Shown here: positions 26,232 through 62,445 of the stretch, one piece after another
How positions within the stretch are numbered: the first letter of the stretch is position 1
How the letters are laid out: each line of letters starts with the position of its first letter
Assembly (NCBI GenBank): GCA_016215025.1
Contig: JACRMI010000139.1
Coordinates: 20,862 to 84,861, forward strand
DNA: 64,000 bases
DNA from: Chloroflexota bacterium
GTDB taxonomy: Bacteria > Chloroflexota > Anaerolineae > UBA4142
Reading direction: 5' to 3'
The notes under the pieces: generated by a model
Database searches by the model: none
What the model saw: only the letters and a program-made list of their open reading frames with translations
Told to the model about the DNA's origin: nothing
Translations under genes and position numbers: made by a program

Positions 26232-26283
26232 CCAAACCTGACAGGTTTTCTCGGCTCATTCGGAACCGCCAAACCTGTCAGGT
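26232..26283. repeat. Two copies of a 15-nt palindromic box CCAAACCTG(A/T)CAGGT
   Basis: Copies at 26232-26246 and 26269-26283, 37 bp apart. The first extends to the perfect palindrome aaacctgacaggttt. A half-copy aaacctgaca occurs at 32383-32392 upstream of the Fe-S subunit gene. Confidence 0.65.
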
Positions 26284-26286
26284 CTC

Positions 26287-26425
26287 CATGTCTCCTTTCC
26301 AAAAACTGCGGAGGCGCGCGTGTTTCCTTGCGCGCCCACAACTCGGGTTAGCGAGTTCCTCGGATCGAGGTTCGGCGCGTACCGCATAGAGTCATCCTCG
26401 GTAGCGGTACGCGCTCGGAGAGAAA
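26287..26425 (-). ncRNA. Candidate molybdenum-cofactor (Moco) riboswitch
   Basis: The minus-strand RNA starts right after the miniprotein stop. It reads UCUCCGAGCGCGUACCGC..GCGGUACGCGCC, hairpins CCUCGAUCCGAGG and AACUCGCUAACCCGAGUU, then GGCGCGCaaggaaacacGCGCGCCUCCGCAGUUUUUGGAAAGGAGACAUGG. As I recall it, this 3' part closely parallels the E. coli moaA Moco element (..GGCGAAGgaagaaaugaCUUCGCCUCCCGUAUCUGGAAAGGUGUACAUGG). 5' UCUCC can pair with the SD GGAGA. Not verified with a covariance model. Confidence 0.45.
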
Positions 26426-26680
26426 TTATTTGGGTTTGAAAAGTGACTGCATCAAGTCGCGATTTTTTGTTTCGACATCACGACACGCCGGGCAACGCTC
26501 GTCGTCATCATTTGCTTGAAACGGTAGACGACACTTGGCGCATTCGTGATCTGCCTCAGCTTGCTTTAGCGCTTGGAGATTTCGAGTTCGTTGTTCGTTA
26601 GCGGCGACGCGTTTAGCTATCGTCTTCAACGGACTGGCGAGCTGCGCGAAGAAATCGCGACGAGAAAGTGATTGGCTCAT
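26426..26680 (-). CDS. 84-aa protein with an N-terminal twin-arginine-like motif (SRRDFF) but no hydrophobic h-region, plus a CxxC..CxxC zinc ribbon
   Basis: MSQSLSRRDFFAQLASPLKTIAKRVAANEQ... followed by CAKCRLPFQANDDDERCPAC. Located between the Mo-subunit gene and the riboswitch-like element. Confidence 0.5.
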   Translation of the reverse strand: MSQSLSRRDFFAQLASPLKTIAKRVAANEQRTRNLQALKQAEADHECAKCRLPFQANDDDERCPACRDVETKNRDLMQSLFKPK

Positions 26681-46130: not shown

Positions 46131-47054
46131 ATGCCGCTCCTCCATTGGAGCAACATATTTACGCGCGTGCTCTTTCCAACCGATTTTTCCACCTACGCCA
46201 ATGCGGTCTTTGATTGCTTGCCCGAATTAAAGTCTGCGGGGCTAGAGCAAGTGATCTTGCTTTCTGTGATTCGCGAGAGCGATGTCCCGCTGGCAGACAC
46301 GCCGGTAAATGAAGAATCGTTCGCGCGCATCAGGTGGAGCGTGGAAGAGCAACTGCACATGGCGTAACACGCCTTGGAAGGGCAAGGCATCTCCACGCGT
46401 GCCCGCGTTGAGTATGGGAATCCGGCGCGCGAAATTGTGCCCCAGGACGAACGGGTTGATCTGATTGTGATAGGCGCGCAAGGACAGAGTCTCTTTCAGG
46501 ATGTGCTCCTGGGCAATACCGCATTTGATGTTCTGCGCCTGTCGCCGATTCCAGTGCTCATCGAAAATTGCGATGTGGTGCATGAGCTAGGGCATACAAA
46601 ATGCCGACGGATCTGCCAGCAAACCTTTACGCGCGTCCTGCATCCCACGGACTTTTCCGATTGCGCGAAAGCCGCCTTTCATATTGTCAAACGGCTCAAG
46701 CCCGCCGGTACCGAGCAGGTCATCTTGTTGCATGTTCAAGATGACCACGCGATGCAACATCGTTCTGCCGAACAAATCGCCGAATTTGATGGCGATGACT
46801 ATCAGCGTCTTGAGCAAATGCAACGTGCGCTGACACTGGATGGCCTATCTGCTGCCAAAACCATCGTGCGACATGGCGTCCCATTCCGAGAGACCTTACG
46901 CGTTGCGGACGAAGAAAAGGCAACCGTTATCGTGTTAGGCCTGTACGGTCGCAGTGCCGTGGCAGAGATGGTCTTTGGAAGTACATTCGAGAAAATCGTG
47001 CGTACCAGTCGTCGCCCAGTTTTGGTGGTGCGAATGGAACCTCAGTCAACGTAG
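46131..47054 (+). pseudogene. Tandem universal stress protein (2 Usp domains) interrupted by one in-frame TAA
   Basis: ORFs 46131-46367 and 46374-47054 share one frame. TAA 46365-46367 splits the first Usp domain (...EEQLHMA*HALEGQGISTRARVEYGNPAREI...). The second domain is intact. Confidence 0.55.
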
Positions 47055-51270: not shown

Positions 51271-51966
51271 TCAATCCGTCTTGAGTCGATAGCCGACGCC
51301 TAATTCTGTGGTCAGATAACGCGGGCGGGCTGGATCGATTTCGAGTTTGTGGCGGAGTTGGGTCATATAGACACGCAAATATTGACTCTCATCCGCATAC
51401 GCGGGTCCCCACACTACTTTCAGCAATTGACGATGCGTAACCACTTTGCCCGCGTACCGCACAAGTGTCGTCAAAAGTTTATATTCAATCGGTGTCAGAT
51501 GGATTTCGTTGCCGCCGATTGAAACCTGGCGTTTGCTCAAATCCACTTGCAAATTCCCCACGACAAATAGTGGTTCTTCTTTCTCCGGGACGCGCGCTGC
51601 ATGGCGAAGAATAACTCGAATGCGCGCGAGCAATTCGCTGACGCTGAACGGTTTGGTCAAGTAATCGTCTGCACCGGCGTCGAGCGCGGTGACTTTGTCG
51701 CTTTCTTGCCCACGTGCCGACAGAATGATGATCGGCAATAATGTCCATTCGCGCAGTTGATGAATGACCTCTAAACCATCCAAGTCCGGCAATCCCAAGT
51801 CGAGAATAATCAGATCAAGTTGTCGCGTTGAAGCAAGCGCTAATCCTTCCTTCGCGGTTCCGGCTTCGAGAAATTGATAGCCATGATTCACCAACGCCGT
51901 ACGCAAAAAGCGACGAATAGGTAGTTCATCTTCGATGACAAGAATGCTGGGTAAATTTTCTGCCAT
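51271..51966 (-). CDS. kdpE: OmpR-family response regulator KdpE
   Basis: Receiver domain (LIILDLGLPDLDG) plus winged helix (LTPIEYKLLTTLVRYAGKVVTHRQLL..VWG......YLRVYMTQLRHKLE). Sits at the end of the kdp locus. ATG 51966 is taken as start; a TTG at 51981 is also open. Confidence 0.9.
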   Translation of the reverse strand: MAENLPSILVIEDELPIRRFLRTALVNHGYQFLEAGTAKEGLALASTRQLDLIILDLGLPDLDGLEVIHQLREWTLLPIIILSARGQESDKVTALDAGADDYLTKPFSVSELLARIRVILRHAARVPEKEEPLFVVGNLQVDLSKRQVSIGGNEIHLTPIEYKLLTTLVRYAGKVVTHRQLLKVVWGPAYADESQYLRVYMTQLRHKLEIDPARPRYLTTELGVGYRLKTD

Positions 51967-52023
51967 GTTGCCAACAACCAAGTTTCGCGAAACGAGGAAA
52001 ACCTGGTTTCTTGCTCCTTCAGG

Positions 52024-53601
52024 TTATGCGACATCCACTTCCGGTTCTACAATGGGCGGCTTGCCTTCCAGAGGCAGAGTAAATTGAAATACTGCTCCTC
52101 CGCCCTGGCGATTCTGCGCCCAGATTTTTCCACCATGTGCCTGAACAATGCCGCGACAAATCGTCAATCCTAATCCGACTCCGCCACCATCGGTGCGAGC
52201 GCGATAAAATTTGTCGAAGACGCGGTCCTCCTCACCGGGCGGTACGCCGGGACCCTGGTCAGCGACCTGAACGAGGACATGACCATCGGCGATGCGCGCC
52301 GCAATTTCGATCGGACTCGCGGCGGGAGTATACTTGATCGCATTCTCCAGCAGATTGACCAGAACTTGATCGATCAAAATACTGTCGAGCGGAACGAGCG
52401 GCAAATCGGCGGGAATATCCGTGGTGACGGGATGATCGTGCAATCGATCCTCTAAACGCGTGAGGACAACGCCGACAATTTCTTCGAGGACGGACCATTC
52501 TTTGCGAACCTGAACCGCGCCCGCTTCGAGGCGGGTCATATTCAACAGATTGCCAATGAGACGATTCAATCGCTCGGCTTCTTCCGCAATGGTTTGCGCG
52601 AGGTCGCGCGTTTCGCCTTGTGTCTCTTCGATCAAATTTCCAGCCGTGCCGGTAATTGCCGCGAGCGGTGTTTTCAAATCATGCGAGATCGAACTGAGCA
52701 ACGCGTTACGCGTTCGTTCTGCTTCAATTTGCACTTTGGCTTTTTGCGATTCTTCGACGAGGTTCGCGCGCTCAATGGCTAGCGCGGTTTGATTGGCAAA
52801 CGTTTCCAGCAGGTGCATTTGTTCTGGCGAGCCAAGATTCGAGGTCTGCAAGGGTTCGATCCCTAAAACCCCTACCATTCCATGTGCGCCTGTCATTGGT
52901 AAATAAAGTGCTTTGCTGCCTGGCAATGTCTTGGTGCCCAAGCCAGTCATTTGATTATGCTTGAATGCCCAACTTGCTACCGCTCGTTCATTGTCAGCTA
53001 GCGGAAAAGATGAATCATGGGGTATTAATCGTCCAAATGAATTGGTTAATAGAATCGCTACGCGACTTGCCATTGCTTCGCCGATATGCGCCGTGGCAAT
53101 TTGCACGAGTCGCTCAGGGCTTGACGTGCTGGCAAACTCGCGGCTCATGGCATAGAGCGCCGCTGTTCGGCGTTCACGCTGACTTGCGGCATCGGCTTGA
53201 TATCGAATGCGAACGGTCAGCGAACTGATCGTAACCGCGACGATGAACATGACCATGAATACAAAGATGTATTGCACATCGGAAACCGCAAACGTGAGGT
53301 ACGGCGGCACGAAAAAGAAATCAAAGGCGAGCACGCTCAGAAAAGATGCTAGGATCGATGAACCGATATCATATCGCGTGGCAATGAATGTCACGGCGAG
53401 CAAGTAAACCATAACCAGGTTGATCGGCGAAGTAAAAGAGAAGAAGAATGCATCCAACAGCGTACAGGCTGCAATGATTCCAACCGCTCCCACATAACCG
53501 TGCCAATGGATCGTACGCTCCGTGGCAAAAATACGATGCAGGTGCGATTTCACTTTGGGAGATTCTGTTTCTTGGGTTGAGAGCGAATGAGTGGTAGTCA
53601 T
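52024..53601 (-). CDS. KdpD-type histidine kinase lacking the N-terminal KdpD/Usp sensor part (4-TM DUF4118-like + GAF + DHp/CA); canonical H-box
   Basis: TM block followed by ..[14 protein letters not shown].. as in KdpD. H-box [17 protein letters not shown]-box [10 protein letters not shown]-boxes DQGPGV and GVGLGLTIC. Confidence 0.85.
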
Positions 53602-53679
53602 ACTGAAAAAGTAACCAATGAACAGTCAACGGGCTGTTCACTGGCTTTATTCTAGCACAATTGCGTGCAGACTGCCATG

Positions 53680-54369
53680 TTATGACAGAGGTAGTGTGAC
53701 TGTGATGAGCGTTCCGCCGCCATTGCGATTATTTGCATGAATGCTGCCGCCGTGCGCTTGGATAATGCCTTTGCAAATAGCTAAACCTAGCCCCGTTCCA
53801 AGGTCGCCGCTGGGGCGCGGTACGCGATAGAATTTGTCGAAGACGCGCGTGAGATCGTGGCGTGGGATACCAATGCCTCGGTCTGCAATGGAGATTTCGA
53901 GCTGTGAACCAAGGCTGCGGACTCGTACGTCGATGGGCGTATTTGGCGCAGAATACTTGAGCGCGTTGTCCAATAAGTGGACTAGGACTTGGACCATCAG
54001 GACAAAATCCAGCGGCACGAGTGCAAGCGTCGGTGGGATGGTGACGTTCACACGTCGGTCATTCACCTGGTCGCTTAGCCGCTCCAATGCCGAACCGATC
54101 ACGTCGGCAACATCGCAGGGCGTCAACTCAACCCGAAGCGTGTGAGCCTCCACGCGCGCCATGTCTAGCATGTTGCCGATAAATCGATTGAGACGCATGG
54201 CTTCTTCTGCGGCATTATCGATCAGAGCGCGCCGGGTCGGATCGGTCTGTTTTTCTTGTTGCAAATACGATAGCGCGCCTTGAATTGATACTAGGGGGGT
54301 GCGCAATTCGTTGGAGATGGAATCGAGGAACGCGTCTGCGACTTGAGCCGGCGTGGCAATCAATTGCAT
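53680..54369 (-). CDS. Stand-alone DHp/CA histidine-kinase-like protein with Asn in place of the phospho-accepting His
   Basis: 229 aa, no TM or sensor domain. H-box position reads FLDSISNELRTPLVSI (AAC codon at 54310-54312). N-box LLDNALKYS. G-boxes DRGIGI and GTGLGLAIC are intact. Confidence 0.8.
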   Translation of the reverse strand: MQLIATPAQVADAFLDSISNELRTPLVSIQGALSYLQQEKQTDPTRRALIDNAAEEAMRLNRFIGNMLDMARVEAHTLRVELTPCDVADVIGSALERLSDQVNDRRVNVTIPPTLALVPLDFVLMVQVLVHLLDNALKYSAPNTPIDVRVRSLGSQLEISIADRGIGIPRHDLTRVFDKFYRVPRPSGDLGTGLGLAICKGIIQAHGGSIHANNRNGGGTLITVTLPLS

Positions 54370-54391
54370 GGGTTGTTCCTTTCCGATTTTG

Positions 54392-54429
54392 TTGTAGAGA
54401 CGTTCGCGAAGCGTGCACCGTCTCTACAA
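54392..54429. repeat. Intercistronic 11-bp hairpin
   Basis: ttgtagagacg / cgtctctacaa with a loop containing ttcgcgaagcg, between the kdpC stop and the 229-aa kinase-like gene. Confidence 0.65.
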
Positions 54430-54439
54430 AGCCCACGAT

Positions 54440-55012
54440 CTATTTCGTGGCATCAAGCGCAAGATTCAATTCAAGCACATTGACGCGCGGTTCGCCCAAG
54501 ATACCGAACTGGCGATCCTGGGTGTATTGCGTGACTAGTATTCTGATTTTGGTGACATCCATTCCGCGTGCGTTCGCGACCCGGTTGACTTGATATGCGG
54601 CTGCGGCTGGACTGATGTTCGGATCAAGTCCACTGCCGGACGAGGTGACCAAATCGACGGGAATTCCTGCGGTGTTGGTGGGGTCCGCCGCGCGCAACGC
54701 ATCGATGCGCGCCTGTACCTCGTCGATCAAGGCCTGATTCGTGGGACCCAGGTTCGAGCCACTTGACGCTCTCGCGTTGTAAGGAAAAGGCGCGGTCGCG
54801 GAGAGTCGTCCCCAGAAATATTTCGGATCGTCGAAAGGTTGCCCAATCAAAGTCGAACCAACTGCCTTGCCATCTTTCATAATCAGACTGCCGTTCGCTT
54901 GCGCTGGGAATGCGACCTGGGCAACCGCCGTCACGGCGAGCGGATAGAATAAACCGGTGATGACCGTCAACAATAAGTATGACACAATCGCCGGTCGAAG
55001 TTGTGCTAACAT
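54440..55012 (-). CDS. kdpC: Potassium-transporting ATPase subunit KdpC
   Basis: Motifs ..[25 protein letters not shown].., ..SGSNLGPTN.., ..[15 protein letters not shown]. are characteristic of KdpC. Confidence 0.9.
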
Positions 55013-55386
55013 TAGTTGTACCTTCCTTTATTTGGAACGATGTCCGCTCTGCGCGAGCCGGCAGCAGGATGTGAGTGTGGGATCGCTGGCATATGCGTCG
55101 GTTCCGAAATTGATTCTTCAGGCAATTCGAGTTTCAAAGTTTCAGCATCGCTTGGCTCTTCTATAAAAACCCATCGTTCTCTAGAGTGGTCTGCTTCTTC
55201 CAACGCCACAGCGTTTATGCGGACCCATCCCACCATCAAGCCAAAAGTCGCAATCACGATGCCGGAATCGACAATCTCGTGGACCTCAAGCGCGTACTTG
55301 AATTGGCTCTCGATTAAGAGCGCAACAATCATCAACGGCACGAATGAGAAGGGAATCCACCAATTCGGTTTTGTTTTGTGTTCCAC
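55012..55386 (-). CDS. 124-aa two-TM hypothetical protein inserted between kdpB and kdpC
   Basis: [26 protein letters not shown]...[15 protein letters not shown].., followed by an acidic/His-rich tail. Its stop overlaps the kdpC start. It begins 9 nt after the kdpB stop. Confidence 0.5.
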
Positions 55387-55395
55387 ATGAACCTC

Positions 55396-57468
55396 CTAGA
55401 CCAAATTCAGCGCCGCTAGTATCAAGTCGATAGCTTTGATGCCGATAAACGGAACGATCAATCCGCCCAAGCCGTACACGAGCAAGTTTCGTTGCAACAA
55501 CGCCGACGCGCCAATCGGACGATATTTAACTCCACGCAGCGCAAGCGGAATCAGCGCAATGATGATGAGCGCGTTGAAGATCACCGCCGACAAAATCGCG
55601 CTGGCTGGCGTGGTCAATTGCATAATGTTTAGCCTACCCAACTGGGGATACGTGGTGGCAAACGCCGCAGGAATGATCGCAAAGTATTTCGAAACATCGT
55701 TGGCGATGCTGAACGTCGTCAGCGCGCCGCGCGTCATCAACAGTTGCTTGCCAATCTCGACAATCTCCAACAACTTGGTTGGATTGGAATCGAGGTCAAC
55801 CAAATTCCCAGCTTCTTTCGCCGCTTGCGTTCCGGTGTTCATCGCGACAGCCACGTCGGCTTGGGCGAGCGCGGGCGCATCATTCGTGCCATCGCCCGTC
55901 ATCGCGACCAAGCGTCCGCCAGCTTGATAATCGCGAATGAGTTTTAGTTTTGTCTCTGGTGTGGCCTGTGCCAGAAAATCATCGACCCCAGCTTCGGCGG
56001 CGATAGCGGTTGCCGTCAGTGGATTATCGCCCGTAATCATCACCGTCTTGATGCCCATGCGGCGCAGTTCAGCAAAGCGTTCCTTGATGCCACCCTTGAC
56101 AATATCTTTCAGTTGAATCGTGCCTAGCACACGTTCGCAATCTGCCACGACGAGCGGCGTCCCTCCCTGCTTGGCAATCGTCTCGACGCTTTGGCGCACT
56201 GAGGGTGGAAGATGTCCGTGCTGTTGTTGCACGTACTGTTCAATCGCATCCGCTGCGCCTTTGCGAATCTGACGACCGTCGAAATTGACGCCGCTCATGC
56301 GCGTCTGGGCGCTGAATGGGATGAAGGTCGCGCCGAGTTCATGGATCTTGCGTTCGCGCAGTCCGTATTTTTCTTTTGCCAAAACGACGATGCTGCGACC
56401 TTCCGGTGTTTCATCGGCGAGCGAGGCAAGTTGCGCCGCATCAGCAAGTTCGTTCGGATCAACTCCTTCGGCGGACATGAATGCCGTTGCTTGTCGATTG
56501 CCTAGCGTAATCGTGCCGGTCTTGTCGAGCAGCAGGACATCCACATCGCCCGCCGCTTCCACCGCGCGACCGGACATTGCGATAACGTTCGCTTGAATCA
56601 TGCGGTCCATGCCGGCGATGCCGATGGCGGAAAGCAAGCCGCCAATCGTCGTTGGAATCAAACAAACGAGTAAAGCCACCAAGGCGGTTACAGTGATCGG
56701 CGTGCCTTGACCGGCAGAATTCACGCTGTAAATCGAAAAGGGCAACAGCGCTGCGCAGACGAGTAAGAAGATGATCGTCAACGCCGCCAGCAAAATATCC
56801 AATGCAATCTCGTTCGGCGTCTTTTGTCGCTTGGCTCCTTCCACCATCGAGATCATTCGATCAAGGAATGTTTCGCCGGGATTGGCTGTAATGCGAACGA
56901 CAAGCCAATCTGACAGAACGCGCGTCCCACCGGTCACGGCACTCCGGTCGCCGCCGCTCTCACGAATGACGGGCGCGCTTTCGCCGGTGACCGCGCTTTC
57001 ATCGACAGAGGCCACACCTTCAATGGCTTCACCATCGCCCGGAATGAAATCGCCTGCTTCGACCAGCACGACATCGCCTTTGCGTAATTCACTCGCCGAT
57101 ACAATATTGCGCGGTGCGTCGTGTTTGGCGCGCACGAGCTTTTTTGCCGATATATCCCGGCGCGCTTTGCGGAGCGCTTCGGCTTGCGCTTTGCCGCGCC
57201 CCTCTGCCATCGCTTCGGCGAAATTGGCAAAGAGAACGGTGAACCACAGCCATGCCGAAATCGCCAAGATGAAAGCGGCAGGCGCTTCGCCTTGGCCAAT
57301 CAACGCTTGAACGAAGAGAAACGAGGTAAAGACGCTTCCCACTTCAACGACGAACATTACGGGGTTGCGAATCTGGTGGCGCGGATCAAGTTTCCAAACG
57401 GAATCTAGAGCGGCGCGCCGTACAATCGCCGGATCATAAAGTGGTCGTGATTTAGTTTGAGTCATCAT
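55396..57468 (-). CDS. kdpB: Potassium-transporting P-type ATPase subunit KdpB
   Basis: DKTGTIT phosphorylation motif, [25 protein letters not shown], 690 aa. Confidence 0.95.
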
Positions 57469-57480
57469 GTTGATATTCCT

Positions 57481-59286
57481 TTAAGGCGCAATCAGGTGCA
57501 GATGCTCGACGATGGGTCCCAGCGAATCTGCCGGGAAGAAGACGAGCGCGCCGACAATTAGCACAACAGCTAGCAGCCAACCGACAAAGAGCGGTGTGTG
57601 CGTTGGAAGGGTGCCGGCACTCACTGGGATTTTTTTCTTGCGCGCAAGTGCGCCGGCAATCGCCAGGACGGGTATCTTGATCCAAAAGCGTCCGAAGAGC
57701 ATGGCGATCCCACCAGCAGTGTTATAGAACGGCGTGTTCGCACTCAAACCGGCGAATGCGCTCCCGTTGTTGTTTCCCTGCGATGTAAAGGCATACAAGA
57801 TTTCACTAAAGCCATGCGCGCCGGGATTCCAGATGCTTGCGAGACCGTCTTGGTTTACCACTGCAATGGCGGTTAGTAACAGGACGACGAGCGGCATAAT
57901 CAAGATGCCGATGGATGCCATCTTCATTTCGTATGCTTCGATCTTTTTCCCCAGGTATTCAGGGGTACGCCCCACCATCAGCCCGGCTACGAAAACGGCG
58001 ATGATTAAAAAGATCAACATACCGTACAAGCCAGAACCGACGCCGCCAAAGATCACCTCGCCCAGTTGCATCATGACCAGCGATACCAAGCCGCCAAGTG
58101 GCGTATACGAATCATGCATCGAGTTGACCGAGCCGTTGGAAGCGGCAGTCGTCACGGTTGCCCAGAGCGCGGAATTCGCAACTCCAAACCGGACTTCCTT
58201 TCCTTCCATGTTTCCGCCCGGACTGGTGTCGCTCGCGATTTGATTTACGCCCAGCACTGCGATGCGTGGATTTCCGGCCGCTTCCGAAGAATAAGCGACA
58301 AAAATACCGATGATGACGATAAAGAACATCGCCGCGAGAAGCGCCCAGCCCTGGCGTGTATCGCCGACCATCTTGCCGAAGGTGTAGCAGAGTGCACCCG
58401 CGATCAACAAGATGGACAGGGATTCGAGAAAGTTGGTCAAGGGGGTCGGATTTTCAAATGGGTGCGCCGAGTTCGTGTTGAAAAATCCGCCGCCGTTTGT
58501 GCCGAGTTGCTTGATGGCAATTTGCGATGCCGTTGGTCCAACGGCAATCACCTGTTCGGTCAGCGTAATGCTCTCGGTAACAATTTTTCCGTTCGCATCT
58601 TTGATCGGACTGCCGTTCGCATCCAGTTTTGGTTGGTCGTACTGAATTGGCTGGACAATTGACACCGTTTGGTATGGGCTTAGGGTTTGCACCATACCCT
58701 GCGAAACGAGAATCAGTGCGAGAACGAAGGACATTGGCAGCAAGATGTATAGCGTCGTGCGGGTGAGGTCTACCCAAAAATTGCCAATGGTCTGCGCGTT
58801 GCGACGCACCAAGCCGCGAATGAGCGCGACCAAGACGGCCATTCCAGCCGCCGCCGATACAAAATTGTGAAAGGTCAACCCCACCATCTGTGTCAGGTAA
58901 CTCATCGTCACTTCGCCGCTATAGCCCTGCCAGTTGGTGTTGGTCGTGAAGCTGATCGCGGTGTTGAATGACGAGTCTGAGCTAACCGCCCCCAAACCTT
59001 GCGGGTTGAGCGGTAGCATTCCTTGCAAGCGCTGCAAAGCATAGAGGGTCACTGCGCCAATCACACTGAACAATAAAACTGCGACCGTATAAATCTTCCA
59101 ATCCATCTCCTCTTCGGGTCGAATCCCAAATAAGCGATAGGAAAGCCGCTCCACCGGACCGAGCACACGATCCAGCGGAGTCGATTGACCTTCGTACACC
59201 CGCGCCATGTACGAGCCAAGGGGCTTGACTAGCAGCGCGAGGACGACGAGATATAAACCAATTTGAATGAATCCACTTGGTGTCAT
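57481..59286 (-). CDS. kdpA: Potassium-transporting ATPase subunit KdpA
   Basis: 601 aa polytopic protein with typical KdpA segments (TNTNWQ.Y.GE, LGTNGGGF.N.NSAHPFENP). Confidence 0.95.
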   Translation of the reverse strand: MTPSGFIQIGLYLVVLALLVKPLGSYMARVYEGQSTPLDRVLGPVERLSYRLFGIRPEEEMDWKIYTVAVLLFSVIGAVTLYALQRLQGMLPLNPQGLGAVSSDSSFNTAISFTTNTNWQGYSGEVTMSYLTQMVGLTFHNFVSAAAGMAVLVALIRGLVRRNAQTIGNFWVDLTRTTLYILLPMSFVLALILVSQGMVQTLSPYQTVSIVQPIQYDQPKLDANGSPIKDANGKIVTESITLTEQVIAVGPTASQIAIKQLGTNGGGFFNTNSAHPFENPTPLTNFLESLSILLIAGALCYTFGKMVGDTRQGWALLAAMFFIVIIGIFVAYSSEAAGNPRIAVLGVNQIASDTSPGGNMEGKEVRFGVANSALWATVTTAASNGSVNSMHDSYTPLGGLVSLVMMQLGEVIFGGVGSGLYGMLIFLIIAVFVAGLMVGRTPEYLGKKIEAYEMKMASIGILIMPLVVLLLTAIAVVNQDGLASIWNPGAHGFSEILYAFTSQGNNNGSAFAGLSANTPFYNTAGGIAMLFGRFWIKIPVLAIAGALARKKKIPVSAGTLPTHTPLFVGWLLAVVLIVGALVFFPADSLGPIVEHLHLIAP

Positions 59287-59375
59287 GAGAACAACTCCGG
59301 TTTCAACAATGCAATGACCAAGTAGATAAAGAGTGCCAGCGTCACAATGCCGCCGACGATGTGAATGAGGTTCAT
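59283..59375 (-). CDS. kdpF: KdpF (30-aa hydrophobic subunit), below the ORF-track cutoff
   Basis: Hand translation gives MNLIHIVGGIVTLALFIYLVIALLKPELFS. The stop overlaps the kdpA start (ATGA). The ..LLKPE.F ending is typical of KdpF. Confidence 0.75.
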   Translation of the reverse strand: MNLIHIVGGIVTLALFIYLVIALLKPELFS

Positions 59376-59404
59376 GGTTCTCTCCCGCAAATTTTCAATC
59401 ATGT

Positions 59405-59518
59405 TCAACTATTGTGACCAAAACTCTGTCCATTTGCGCTCAACCACTCACACAATTTTAGGAGCGCCCAAGACAGAGCAAAAAAGACGAGCGTCAAAAT
59501 AATAAAGACAATATCCAT
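59405..59518 (-). CDS. 37-aa hydrophobic miniprotein upstream of kdpF
   Basis: AAGGAG SD lies 6 nt before the ATG. Hand translation gives MDIVFIILTLVFFALSWALLKLCEWLSANGQSFGHNS. Confidence 0.35.
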   Translation of the reverse strand: MDIVFIILTLVFFALSWALLKLCEWLSANGQSFGHNS

Positions 59519-59689
59519 TTGTGACTCCTTGTCTCAAAACCGTCTCGTTATAACACAAGACCTAGTAAGAGCGCGGTCAAGATTGCATCGAGCCATATAA
59601 AGATTGTGCAAAGACTGCAAGCGCCGACTGGCTCTCTGTTAAGAAAGTATCAAGAAGAAAGCATGGCGCTATAAAGAAAAAATCAAGAA

Positions 59690-59716
59690 ATAAAAACAAC
59701 CGACCAAGTCGGTTGT
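59690..59716 (-). terminator. rho-independent terminator of kdpD
   Basis: On the minus strand, acaaccgac / gtcggttgt forms a 9-bp stem with a 3-nt loop. It starts at the stop codon and is followed by tttttat. Confidence 0.7.
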
Positions 59717-62445
59717 CAAACATTAATCTTGTCTTTTTTCTCTGCAACAGGTGGGGCACGTCTTGTTAGCGGCAAACGAATGATGAAACTGATTCCACCG
59801 CGCGTGCGATTTTCGGCGGTAATGGTTCCACCCTGCGCTTCCACCATTCCGCGTGTGATCGAAAGCCCCAAGCCCAAACCATCGCGACGCGCATCGGGAG
59901 CATGATAGTACTTGTCGAAAATTTTCGGTAACAGCTCCGGTGCAACGCCCGGCCCACGATCAGACACTGCGAGCACCAAATCGGTTCCCTCTACTTTGGC
60001 ACTCACGCGCACGCGCGTATTGGGCGGCGTGTGCGTCGCCGCGTTGTGAATCAAATTGAGTAATGCACGTTCCATCAAGGCAGAATCGATTTGCGCCTGC
60101 GGTAGATTCGGCGCAATCTCTTCGATCACCTCGTGCGGCGCGAGGTACGGCCCAAGCCGCTGAATGGCATGACGAACGAGATTGCCGACATTGCACCATT
60201 CCAATTGCGGCTTGAGCATTCCGGATTCAAGTCGCGTCAAATCCACGAGATTTTCCATCAAACGATTCAATCGCTCCGCCGCCGTGCGCGTTTGTTCAAC
60301 CAGGGCATTCCGCGTCTCTATCTGATTTGTCAATTGCGAATCATCCAAGCTCGCGGCGGCATGTGTGATGGTGCTAATCGGCGCGCGAATTTCCTGCGTG
60401 ACCGATTCCAACAAATTGCGATACAATTCCTCCGATTGGGAAACAACCACTGTTCGTTCGCGCGCTTGTTCCAACATCTCGCGTTCGATGGCAAGCGCAA
60501 CTTGACTGGCAAAAGTTTCCAGCAGCGATTCTTGATCGACCGACAATTGCTCGCGTGCGCGTACGCCCATAACGCCAACGACCGAATCAGGCGTGATGAG
60601 CGGAAGCCAACGCGCGTTTGCCATCGGCAACGTGTCCGTAAATCGTCCTGCCGGTTTGCGATTTAGGAATGCCCACATCGCAACGCTGCGTTCTTTCTCA
60701 TCGACCTTTAGGGTGCTGTCCGGATGCGCATCATACGCCAATTGGTTTCCTTCATCGCGCAGCAAAAAGGCGACCTCCGCATCAAATACTTTGCCAATCT
60801 CTTTGACGGCGCTCTTGAGTATACTATCCATTGACGCTGCGCTGGCGATGGCGTGCGCTAACGCATAAAGCGCCGCCGTACGTTTCTCCCGATAGCGCGC
60901 CGCTTGTTCCTGCGCGCGCAGACGTGAGCGCAAAAAGCCGGTTGCCAAAGCAATAATGAAATACAAGCCAAGCGTCAAGGTGTTTTCGATACCCGCAAGA
61001 TCGAGGGTAAAGATGCGTGGGACAAAGAGCAAGACCCAAAGCACTGCACTCAGCACGGCTGCTAAAAGCACAGGACCGCGTCCGACGACAAAGGCAAGCA
61101 ACGAAATTGTCAAGAGCAGAATCAGCCCGACCGTTTGCGGGCTAATCCATAGTCTTGCCCAGAGGTTGATGCCTGTGATGGCGGCAACAACAAGCGCCGC
61201 GCCGATATACTCGCGACGATCAGAGCGGATAAAGGGATGCACACGCGCGGTGTGAGCCAGCCGCATGTAAACATCGCCGGGTCTTGCTCCGCGCTTGACC
61301 TGGGACATGTCACCGGTAACGACGTAAATATCTAGATCACCACTAGTACGAATCAATCGATCTACTAATGCACCGCCGCGCAACAAATCCACAAACACGT
61401 TGCACTCTGGTTTACCGACGATGATTTGCGTTACATTGCGTTCACGCGCGACCCGCAGCAATCCATCGACAATATTTTCATCGGTCGTCGTAACAACCTC
61501 GCCGCCAAGTTCGCGCGCGAGCGATAGATTGTGATTAAGCTGTGCTTTGATATTTTCGGGAAGCACTTGCGATGTTTCGACATTGACGGCCAGCCAGGGT
61601 GCGCCGAGGTTGTACGCCATGCGGCGCGTCCAGCGCACGAGACGCTCCGCGAGTGGGCTGGGACTCACCGCCACCATCATGCGTTCGCCCGATTTCCAGG
61701 GCCCCGCGATGCGCTTGAGCGACATGTAATCTTGGAGTTGATGATCGACGCGTTCAGCCGTAAGCCGCAGCGCCATCTCACGCAGGGCAGTTAGATTGCC
61801 CACCCGGAAAAAATTTTTCGCTGCGACTTCGGCGCTTTCGGCGACATACACCTTGCCCTCGCCAAGTCGTTGCCGCAGTTCTTCGGGTGTCAAATCGATC
61901 AACTCAACTTCATCGGCGAGATCGACAATCGAATCGGGGACGGTTTCGCGTACGGTGATGCCGGTGATTTGGCGAACTGTATCGGCACGACTTTCGAGGT
62001 GCTGAACATTTAGCGTCGTGTAAACATTGATCCCAGCGTCGAGTAATTCGACGATATCTTGATAGCGTTTTGGATGGCGCACGCCGGGCGCATTCGTGTG
62101 CGCCAATTCATCGACCAAGACTAGTTGAGGATGCCGCTGGAGAATCGCATCCAGATTCATTTCTTGAAGCGTGTGCCCGCGATATTCGATTTGGAGGCGA
62201 GGGACAACATCCAAGTCACGCAAGAGTGCTTCGGTTTCGACGCGACCATGCGTTTCGACAACGCCAACGACGACTTGAATGCCATCTTTGAGTTGCTGCT
62301 GGGCGGCTTCCAACATTGCATAGGTCTTGCCGACGCCAGCCGCCATGCCCAAAAATATTTTTAGTTTGCCGCGTCCTTCGCGAGCTTGGGCATGCTGCAG
62401 ACTCGCTAAAAGTACGTCCGGATCAGGTCGCTCTGGGTAATTCAT
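59716..62445 (-). CDS. kdpD: Full-length KdpD-type sensor (KdpD N-terminal + Usp-like + 4 TM + GAF + DHp/CA) with Gln in place of the phospho-accepting His
   Basis: N-terminal GKLKIFLGMAAGVGKT P-loop of the KdpD domain. H-box position reads LLESVTQEIRAPISTI (CAG codon at 60394-60396). N-box LLNLIHNAATHTP. G-boxes DRGPGV and GLGLGLSI are intact. Confidence 0.9.
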   Translation of the reverse strand: MNYPERPDPDVLLASLQHAQAREGRGKLKIFLGMAAGVGKTYAMLEAAQQQLKDGIQVVVGVVETHGRVETEALLRDLDVVPRLQIEYRGHTLQEMNLDAILQRHPQLVLVDELAHTNAPGVRHPKRYQDIVELLDAGINVYTTLNVQHLESRADTVRQITGITVRETVPDSIVDLADEVELIDLTPEELRQRLGEGKVYVAESAEVAAKNFFRVGNLTALREMALRLTAERVDHQLQDYMSLKRIAGPWKSGERMMVAVSPSPLAERLVRWTRRMAYNLGAPWLAVNVETSQVLPENIKAQLNHNLSLARELGGEVVTTTDENIVDGLLRVARERNVTQIIVGKPECNVFVDLLRGGALVDRLIRTSGDLDIYVVTGDMSQVKRGARPGDVYMRLAHTARVHPFIRSDRREYIGAALVVAAITGINLWARLWISPQTVGLILLLTISLLAFVVGRGPVLLAAVLSAVLWVLLFVPRIFTLDLAGIENTLTLGLYFIIALATGFLRSRLRAQEQAARYREKRTAALYALAHAIASAASMDSILKSAVKEIGKVFDAEVAFLLRDEGNQLAYDAHPDSTLKVDEKERSVAMWAFLNRKPAGRFTDTLPMANARWLPLITPDSVVGVMGVRAREQLSVDQESLLETFASQVALAIEREMLEQARERTVVVSQSEELYRNLLESVTQEIRAPISTITHAAASLDDSQLTNQIETRNALVEQTRTAAERLNRLMENLVDLTRLESGMLKPQLEWCNVGNLVRHAIQRLGPYLAPHEVIEEIAPNLPQAQIDSALMERALLNLIHNAATHTPPNTRVRVSAKVEGTDLVLAVSDRGPGVAPELLPKIFDKYYHAPDARRDGLGLGLSITRGMVEAQGGTITAENRTRGGISFIIRLPLTRRAPPVAEKKDKINV

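Follow-up and report, generated by a model that had tools for sequence, protein, structure and literature searches.

The 64,000-nucleotide stretch of contig JACRMI010000139.1 from a Chloroflexota bacterium (hereafter the window), which is the part of this genome visible to us, carries a kdp K+ pump locus with three genes for KdpD-type kinases. The open reading frame (ORF) map and our own translation give the order kdpD909, orf37, kdpF, kdpA, kdpB, orf124, kdpC, HK229, HK525, and kdpE on the minus strand, which bears out the gene order and sizes of an earlier reading of the sequence alone (hereafter the original prediction). Coordinates of the window refer to this strand unless stated otherwise. 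The gene kdpD909 (59716-62445) encodes a full-length KdpD paralogue, HK229 (53680-54369) a soluble DHp-CA protein devoid of sensor domains, and HK525 (52024-53601) a histidine kinase with transmembrane (TM), GAF, DHp, and CA parts. The adjacent kdpE (51271-51981) encodes a regulator with Response_reg and Trans_reg_C domains; its true start is likely the ATG at 51966, giving a protein of 231 amino acids that matches those of relatives.

KdpD909 was characterized from its ORF, from Pfam and NCBIfam matches, and from alignments with 6lgq and 2r8r. Its Pfam domains are, in order, KdpD (PF02702, E = 8.8e-97; residues 25-233, 61747-62373), a weak Usp match (18.2 bits, under the cut-off of 24), the four-TM DUF4118 (PF13493, E = 6.8e-18), GAF (PF13492, E = 2.4e-14), HisKA (PF00512, E = 5.2e-06; 26.8 bits vs. 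a cut-off of 26.9), and HATPase_c (PF02518, E = 6.8e-22), with the DHp-CA module at residues 668-895 (59761-60444). The full KdpD domain architecture is present, and the score of 691.5 bits lies under the equivalog cut-off of NF007793 (1123 bits). The codon at 60394-60396 is CAG and encodes Gln684 within LLESVTQEIRAP. This residue is aligned by HMMER with His673 of the LSHDLRTP motif of the Escherichia coli KdpD transmitter (6lgq_C), so that translation and alignment both confirm the predicted replacement of the phospho-accepting histidine by glutamine. With the H-box reading QEIRAP, the phosphatase threonine is gone as well, Ala688 standing four residues after the phospho-site (position His+4).

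HK229 matches only HisKA (PF00512, E = 4.4e-14) and HATPase_c (PF02518, E = 2.4e-28). Its codon 54310-54312 is AAC, and translation places Asn20 within FLDSISNELRTP where the histidine was predicted to be missing; Glu at His+1 and Thr24 at His+4 are kept. The AlphaFold2 model (pLDDT 85.7) consists of two helices (residues 7-38 and 44-74) followed by a CA domain, and its best TM-score is to 6lgq_C (0.81), with HK853 (0.72), WalK, ZraS, and DivL also among the matches. HK525, for its part, is made up of DUF4118, GAF, HisKA, and HATPase_c, has neither a KdpD nor a Usp domain, and alone of the three keeps the phospho-accepting histidine (His307, codon CAT at 52681-52683), as had been predicted from the translation. 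It also holds throughout the window that the sole protein with a KdpD/Usp part lacks the acceptor histidine and that the sole canonical kinase lacks the KdpD/Usp part.

KdpD909, HK229, and HK525 all have the asparagine of the N box together with G1, F, and G2 boxes, in agreement with the claim that the ATP-binding boxes of the three are intact, the N box of KdpD909 (NLIHNAATHTP, without Lys or Tyr) being unusual. We considered this odd N box as a sign of a dead ATP site and rejected it: His-containing close relatives carry the same N box, which is therefore unlinked to the loss of the histidine.

KdpD was shown in 2024 to be a tandem serine/histidine kinase (Silberberg et al., Nat Commun 15:3223, PMC11018627). 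Through its N-terminal domain, an atypical serine kinase, it phosphorylates Ser162 of KdpB and inhibits the pump at high K+; the isolated domain suffices for KdpB phosphorylation, full-length KdpD in lipid discs is stimulated by K+, and neither the H673A substitution nor deletion of DHp-CA affects the serine-kinase activity (PMC11018627). The serine-kinase motifs are a Walker A G-X5-GKT, Trp39, the Walker B residues Asp109/Glu110, and the adenine-coordinating Arg190 (PMC11018627). KdpD909 holds the only KdpD N-terminal (KdpD-N) Walker A/B domain at the locus, a putative atypical serine kinase. Its Walker A, GMAAGVGKT at residues 33-41 (62323-62349), is followed by Tyr42 and fits G-X5-GKT plus an aromatic residue, and its Walker B, LVLVDELAH from residue 108, keeps Asp-Glu. 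From residue 188, EELRQRLGEGKVY, with its LRQRL motif, is conserved in the clade of KdpD909 described below and may include the equivalent of E. coli R190. KdpB (kdpB, 55396-57468) has the sequence AVTGESAPV, with its TGES motif starting at residue 161; Ser164 (56977-56979), preceded by Glu, is the equivalent of E. coli Ser162.

Relatives of the three kinases

We compared KdpD909 with its 120 best database matches, 107 of which have a histidine at the phospho-site. The closest relatives carry Gln (P0002-5 and P0010), Asn (P0006), or Arg (P0007, P0008, and P0026), and Gln is also found in a more distant pair (P0067 and P0075). A neighbor-joining tree built from 91 DHp-CA domains unites KdpD909 with nine relatives in a monophyletic His-less group (Gln, Asn, or Arg) among the His-bearing KdpDs of Anaerolineae, and P0067/P0075 are a second, independent His-less pair within the clade of upstream and canonical Anaerolineae kinases. 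As the same residue classes recur across independent assemblies, both in 10 further full-length relatives (eight of the same clade plus P0067/P0075) and in the HK229 orthologues described below, these substitutions are not sequencing errors. In the same tree, HK525 and the kinases preceding kdpE in related loci belong to a "downstream" clade whose members all have the histidine, and the three kinases of the window fall into three separate clades (downstream, upstream/canonical Anaerolineae, and short).

The Walker A, Walker B, and LRQRL motifs are the same in every His-less relative with its N-terminus present (P0026 is cut there), Walker A position 2 being Ala or Ser and only hydrophobic swaps occurring ahead of the Walker B Asp-Glu. 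Around the phospho-site, the residues of the His-less clade vary: His+3 is Arg, Ser, or Gly; His+4 is Ala, Thr, Asn, or Ser; and His+11, an invariant Gly in His-bearing relatives, is His, Asp, Glu, Arg, or Ala. Mean pairwise identities in the His-less clade and its His-bearing sister group are 0.85 versus 0.80 for KdpD-N, 0.73 versus 0.68 for Usp, 0.77 versus 0.73 for GAF, and 0.76 versus 0.78 for CA, whereas for DHp they are 0.55 versus 0.74; the relaxation is therefore specific to DHp. Pairwise Nei-Gojobori ratios of nonsynonymous to synonymous substitution rates (dN/dS), which are approximate as dS is near saturation, range from 0.07 to 0.11 between KdpD909 and its counterparts in loci L069, L071, and L070, with the lowest values in KdpD-N (0.05-0.08) and the highest in DHp (0.15-0.24). 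For HK229, dN/dS is 0.10 against the orthologue of L162 and 0.13-0.20 against more distant family members. By these estimates, kdpD909 and HK229 are both under purifying selection, in different ways.

The 11 closest orthologues of HK229 (66-83% identity, 228-247 amino acids) all begin with M-Q/P-L/V. Residue 20 is Asn in each of them and in a further orthologue translated from L072; eight further short relatives have Asn or Gln at the phospho-site. Together they belong to a family of soluble DHp-CA proteins of 228-270 amino acids, mostly with Asn or Gln, encoded after kdpC. In 26 members, Leu22, Arg23, Thr24, Pro25, Leu26, Ser28, Ile29, and Gly31 are invariant, as are the ATP-box residues Asn135, Gly165/Gly167, Phe177/Phe180/Tyr181, and Gly191/Gly193/Gly195. 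In HisKA kinases, an acidic residue at His+1 is needed only for the kinase reaction, and Thr or Asn at His+4 only for the phosphatase reaction (PMC3510030). Because the invariant phosphatase threonine and the ATP-binding boxes are kept, HK229 is probably a phosphatase of phosphorylated KdpE (KdpE~P) or a modulator. We also compared HK229 with representatives clustered at 50% identity, a library in which longer kinases stand for the clusters that include the short family. As every KdpD-like H-box among the 150 best of these representatives has the histidine, its loss appears to be rare overall and specific to these lineages. Public records name all these proteins "sensor histidine kinase KdpD", which calls for caution in annotation.

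A scan of GTDB representative genomes with KdpD909 gave 68 loci, nearly all of the form kdpABC-kdpD(His)-kdpE; in Chloroflexota, the canonical organization among these and in many metagenome loci is kdpFABC-kdpD(His)-kdpE. No GTDB locus of the close His-less clade is complete, L060 and L063 ending at contig ends, and metagenome contigs were therefore used for comparison. A metagenome scan with HK229 returned mostly C-termini of canonical KdpDs, L072 and L092 alone being informative.

When the same trio as in the window (909 amino acids, Gln; 229 amino acids, Asn; 525 amino acids, TM-GAF-DHpCA) was looked for among relatives, L152 was found to have all three, with a short kinase of 250 amino acids (Gln) and a TM-GAF-DHpCA kinase of 523 amino acids before kdpE, but its upstream KdpD (903 amino acids) keeps the histidine. 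L069 combines an upstream KdpD of 909 amino acids (Gln) with a full-length KdpD of 888 amino acids before kdpE and has no short kinase. L071 has an upstream KdpD of 893 amino acids (Gln) and, at the contig end, a short kinase with the histidine, the kinase preceding kdpE not being visible. In L161, an upstream KdpD of 908 amino acids (His) and a full-length kinase of 889 amino acids before kdpE flank the pump genes and the remnant of a short gene with an internal deletion. In this remnant, at 9200-9800 of L161 between kdpC and the downstream kdpD, the H-box SLSHDL is followed by a stop codon and joined to the F and G2 boxes, which shows that the gene for the short kinase can disappear. Several loci have a short kinase with Asn ahead of the kinase that precedes kdpE: 260 amino acids before a full-length one of 889 amino acids in L155, where no upstream KdpD lies within 5 kb, and, with the upstream region not visible, 266 amino acids before full-length ones of 864-910 amino acids in L157, L092, and L158, 247 amino acids before a full-length KdpD in L163, and 228 amino acids before a truncated, HK525-like one on the short contig of L162. 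In all, the short gene stands between kdpC and a kinase gene in L072, L092, L152, L155, L157, L162, and L163. Two loci have a different order: L070 encodes a KdpD-N protein (257 amino acids), HK537 (His), KdpE, and then a His-less KdpD (Arg), and L159, of the independent Gln lineage (P0067/P0075), encodes HK548 (TM-GAF-DHpCA), KdpE, and then a KdpD of 903 amino acids with Gln. L159 also has a second OmpR-family regulator gene upstream of kdpF (1348-2091), besides kdpE.

In related loci, the full-length KdpDs encoded downstream of kdpC are orthologous to HK525 over their C-terminal 60%; the orthologues of HK525 in L152 (HK523) and L162 (a fragment) are also truncated, and those in L069, L155, and L163 are full length. 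No locus whose whole kinase set is visible lacks a KdpD-N domain or, beside kdpE, a kinase with the histidine. Where the kinase beside kdpE is truncated and the rest is visible (the window, L152, and L159), it is the other, full-length paralogue that carries the sole KdpD-N domain. No regulator gene adjoins kdpD909, the sole kdpE of the window following HK525, and the His-less or upstream KdpD is likewise without an adjacent regulator gene in L069, L071, and L152.

Other atypical KdpD genes were observed in the loci retrieved. At 9980-12655 of L051, in an alphaproteobacterial metagenome-assembled genome, a full-length KdpD with Tyr at the phospho-site (LASVTYDLRSP) is encoded after kdpABC, and no kdpE was detected near it. 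Four loci have sensor-only KdpD fragment genes of 244-263 amino acids that encode the KdpD membrane part with or without GAF and lack DHp-CA. They adjoin kdpC, following it in L044 (853-1587), L096 (5284-6075), and L122 (2155-2901) and preceding it in L089 (4486-5259).

Promoter region and accessory genes

The 200 bp upstream of orf37 can be aligned across seven loci and are conserved, with the consensus GTCTTTACACGATCTTTATACCGC...AATCTTGACCGCCCCCTTACGCG.TTCCGTGnTATAAC...AAGGAGG. In the window, a conserved promoter segment of this region (59547-59620) contains the direct repeat TTTGCA-CAATC-TTTATA (59596-59612), which is the only match to TTTRCA-N5-TTTATA in the 64 kb (0.19 expected), and an extended -10 element, TGT-TATAAC (59547-59555). 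The TTTGCA-N5-TTTATA repeat is located some 55-70 bp upstream of the probable start site and resembles the KdpE half-sites of E. coli; we regard it as a candidate KdpE operator. The gene kdpD909 is upstream of this KdpE-box promoter and ends in a terminator-like hairpin with a 10-bp stem and a T run (59695-59717), which overlaps its stop codon. The same scan found no such hairpin in L069 or L071, so we count this terminator as weak evidence. We infer from this layout that kdpD909 would be expressed on its own and that HK229, HK525, and kdpE would be induced with the pump. An Rfam scan found no cyclic di-AMP or other riboswitch in the kdp region; elsewhere in the window, a Moco riboswitch (RF01055) was recognized at 26276-26432 (66.4 bits vs. 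a gathering score of 36).

We rejected the possibility that HK229 and HK525 are one frameshifted gene, since their domain contents do not join and the pair is kept in L152 and L162. The 78-bp gap between them contains, at 53613-53678, a long imperfect hairpin of 13 pairs and a promoter-like match, ATGGCA-18-TAGAAT with TG upstream. HK525-kdpE may also have its own promoter.

The first gene after the conserved promoter, orf37 (59405-59518), is preceded by a strong AAGGAG Shine-Dalgarno sequence and encodes a small hydrophobic peptide with the consensus MDxVFIxLTLVFFALSWAFLKLCExL; in at least 10 related loci of Chloroflexota, this gene immediately precedes kdpF. No family in Pfam or NCBIfam matched the peptide, which may serve as an additional small subunit of Kdp or as a leader. 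KdpF has 30 amino acids when read from the ATG at 59375 (59283-59375), within a longer ORF (59283-59408); PF09604 matches residues 17-38 of the latter, and the KdpFs of relatives have 30 amino acids. It is followed by kdpA (57481-59286), whose product has KdpA homology in all related loci. Between kdpB and kdpC (54440-55012; PF02669, E = 4e-78) lies orf124 (55012-55386), a membrane protein gene kept at this place in many Chloroflexota loci (98-142 amino acids). Its product has two predicted hydrophobic segments, read by eye, and the motifs KPxWW...PLMI...GIVxxxFGLMxxWVxxN; it matched no known family in Pfam or NCBIfam and may act as an accessory subunit of Kdp. A stand-alone universal stress protein with two Usp stretches is encoded at 46374-47054 of the plus strand, 4 kb from kdpE. 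Stand-alone Usp genes are also present in or beside the kdp operon in L071, L157, L161, L152, and L155, and their products may be relevant to KdpD control.

Proposed division of Kdp control among three proteins

The original prediction proposed a division of labor by trans-phosphorylation in heterodimers, by phosphatase-only modulators, or by ATP-binding pseudokinases acting on KdpE. A division of labor fits the comparative data; trans-phosphorylation and pseudokinases acting on KdpE are not its likeliest forms, and phosphatase-only modulation suits HK229, with its invariant Thr at His+4, and not KdpD909, with Ala at this position. We lean, with moderate confidence, towards a sub-functionalized Kdp control module in which three proteins share out the three activities that KdpD alone carries in E. 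coli. A division that sets the serine kinase apart is likelier because KdpD-N is the best conserved domain of KdpD909, its DHp is relaxed, and its phosphatase threonine is lost.

In such a module, whose biochemical activities are predicted from sequences, architectures, conservation, selection, and synteny, HK525 and KdpE would be a working two-component pair. HK525 would phosphorylate KdpE, and KdpE~P would activate orf37-kdpFAB-orf124-kdpC-HK229-HK525-kdpE from the conserved promoter. KdpD909 would be a K+-sensing, serine-kinase-only paralogue inhibiting KdpB after translation. Its histidine-kinase half should be unable to take phosphate at Gln684 and, to judge from Ala at His+4, deficient as a phosphatase, the TM, GAF, DHp, and CA parts being retained as a sensor and a dimeric scaffold. 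HK229, co-expressed with the pump, would dephosphorylate or sequester KdpE~P as negative feedback, or modulate HK525. We propose only tentatively, and with some doubt, that the HK229 family is an undescribed class of ATP-dependent KdpE~P phosphatases or kinase-heterodimerizing modulators, with the three activities on separate polypeptides.

Several points weigh against this interpretation. A pure scaffold role fails to explain why KdpD909 has so well conserved a CA domain (identity 0.76, dN/dS about 0.11), which may still bind ATP for some further purpose. The upstream KdpDs of L152 and L161, which are close relatives of KdpD909, keep the histidine, so this paralogue can be a real kinase, and the loss of the histidine was late. 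The HK229-type gene is absent in L069 and decayed in L161, and the short-family members P0133, P0139, P0142, P0144, and P0161 keep the histidine; the short family is therefore accessory and heterogeneous. Replacing His by Asn can reduce phosphatase activity, which the histidine enhances in EnvZ and CrdS (PMC3510030). The DHp specificity positions differ among the three kinases, so that not all three need bind KdpE. A second KdpE-type regulator could be encoded outside the 64 kb. Finally, it is by extrapolation from E. coli and D. geothermalis that a serine-kinase role is suggested for KdpD909.

The conserved CA domain of KdpD909, which the sub-functionalized module leaves unexplained, keeps two alternatives alive. 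The CA domain of KdpD909, of HK229, or of both might phosphorylate His307 of HK525 in a mixed dimer, through which the sensory input of KdpD909 would reach KdpE. Split or complementary kinases exist, such as HK1/HK2 of M. tuberculosis and CheA3/CheA4 of R. sphaeroides, and E. coli KdpD mutants lacking the histidine or the ATP site reportedly complement each other in mixed dimers; the CA boxes are, moreover, intact and conserved in both His-less proteins. We nevertheless consider such trans-phosphorylation unlikely. No donor is needed by HK525, which already possesses a complete CA domain as well as TM and GAF sensor parts. Paralogous kinases are usually insulated against heterodimerization, and here the three DHp domains fall into three separate clades, with that of KdpD909 being its fastest-evolving part, which is unexpected for a conserved dimer interface. 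Furthermore, the short kinase is missing from L069, where a His-less KdpD occurs together with a complete, full-length one. A little less probable again are pseudokinases resembling DivL, in which one or both His-less proteins would bind KdpE or KdpE~P through DHp without catalysis and sequester it, or relay its phosphorylation state back to HK525 or the pump. A phosphorylated regulator is sensed by DivL, a natural His-less protein with Tyr as the replacement (PMC4211667), and the DivL structure 4q20 is among the best sequence and structure matches; the flank of the HK229 H-box, on the regulator-contacting helix, is extremely conserved. However, mere binding requires neither the invariant catalytic Thr24 nor fully conserved ATP boxes, and the regulator-contacting helix is the least conserved part of KdpD909.

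That both His-less genes are errors or decaying pseudogenes without function is scarcely credible. The remnant in L161 shows that decay happens in the short family, but both reading frames of the window are intact, the same substitutions are found in many independent assemblies, dN/dS is 0.07-0.20 over whole genes, and the motifs of the catalytic fold are invariant. It is just as improbable that KdpD909 is still a histidine kinase with another acceptor. The original prediction pointed to the histidine of STITHAAASL as a possible alternative; this residue, His695 (60361-60363), is on the same DHp helix 11 residues downstream of Gln684. The proposal was not borne out, as His is present at this position only in the window and P0002, with Asp, Glu, Arg, or Ala elsewhere in the clade, and HK229 has no histidine at all on helix 1.

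Comparison with known Kdp systems and His-less kinases

The nearest known counterparts are the split KdpD systems, in which, as here, the serine kinase and the histidine kinase are on different polypeptides and KdpE is present (PMC11018627). In a survey of 5495 species, split chains were encountered most often in Acidobacteriota and Chloroflexota (in the latter, 15 of 25 species), and HK525 has exactly the TM/GAF/DHpCA architecture of their kinase chain (PMC11018627). Unlike in these systems, the serine-kinase chain of the window is a complete KdpD of 909 amino acids that has kept the TM, GAF, DHp, and CA parts and lost the histidine. It is encoded upstream of the pump genes, outside the KdpE-box promoter, whereas the chain is noted downstream in the survey (PMC11018627), and the window encodes a soluble His-less DHp-CA protein as a third component.

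KdpDs classified as full length with a mutated catalytic His were reported in 8 of the 5495 species, four Chlamydiota and four Pseudomonadota, with Chlamydia sp. A0A1M3B8L7 and Legionella hackeliae A0A0A8UWB8 as examples (PMC11018627 and its supplement). Like KdpD909, members of this class are full length, carry both Walker motifs (A and B), have the histidine replaced, and are counted as having the serine kinase and not the histidine kinase; the Tyr-type KdpD of L051 resembles them. None of the class is from Chloroflexota, and the two examples are without KdpE or a second kinase. KdpD909, unlike them, coexists with a predicted working kinase and KdpE, and belongs to a clade, the histidine having been lost in two independent lineages. 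The short KdpDs of Deinococcus, cyanobacteria, and Bacteroidota, which consist of KdpD/Usp only, also keep the N-terminal domain without a histidine kinase (PMC11018627); unlike KdpD909, they have no TM, GAF, DHp, or CA parts. KdpD909 is full length and is not a member of the "KdpD-like non-kinase potassium sensor" family NF038185 (364 bits vs. a cut-off of 550). Compared by eye, its Usp motif I is nearer to the RxxxR-X8-WxAV of E. coli than to the cyclic di-AMP-binding SxS-X20-FTAxY (PMC4686210).

The claim of the original prediction that no Kdp system built this way had been described stands in part. It was already known that the serine and histidine kinases can reside on separate chains and that full-length KdpDs with a mutated histidine exist. 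In the literature searched, to which older KdpD papers did not belong, we found neither a clade of His-less full-length KdpDs with a second kinase and KdpE, with two origins, nor a short Asn/Gln DHp-CA family beside kdpC, nor the three-protein combination of the window, and nothing on the biochemistry of KdpD H673Q or on kdp-linked His-less short kinases. The clade would provide a natural separation-of-function allele, a sensor-bearing KdpD selected over tens of percent divergence without histidine-kinase function, beside a kinase devoid of the serine-kinase domain. It bears on how the K+-sensing TM/GAF parts of KdpD control the serine kinase, and makes testable whether this kinase needs a dimeric DHp-CA scaffold and ATP binding by CA.

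Outside Kdp systems, DivL of Caulobacter crescentus is a conserved, repurposed HisKA DHp-CA protein without the histidine (PMC4211667), and its structure (4q20) ranks high among our matches. It differs in acting in a cell-cycle network, in having PAS sensor domains and a DHp that senses DivK~P to control CckA, and in having Tyr where the proteins described here have Gln or Asn (PMC4211667). HK229 resembles the kinase-minus, phosphatase-plus HisKA variants made in the laboratory, with the histidine gone, Thr at His+4 invariant, and CA intact (Willett and Kirby 2012, PMC3510030, and the EnvZ His243 studies cited there). Those variants, of which NtrB H139N is reportedly one, are engineered point mutants of sensor kinases, whereas HK229 belongs to a free-standing, sensor-less family with a gene of its own and a predicted activity. 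In the short Asn/Gln DHp-CA family, nature would have produced an equivalent of these phosphatase-only mutants and possibly a new type of auxiliary regulator for two-component systems.

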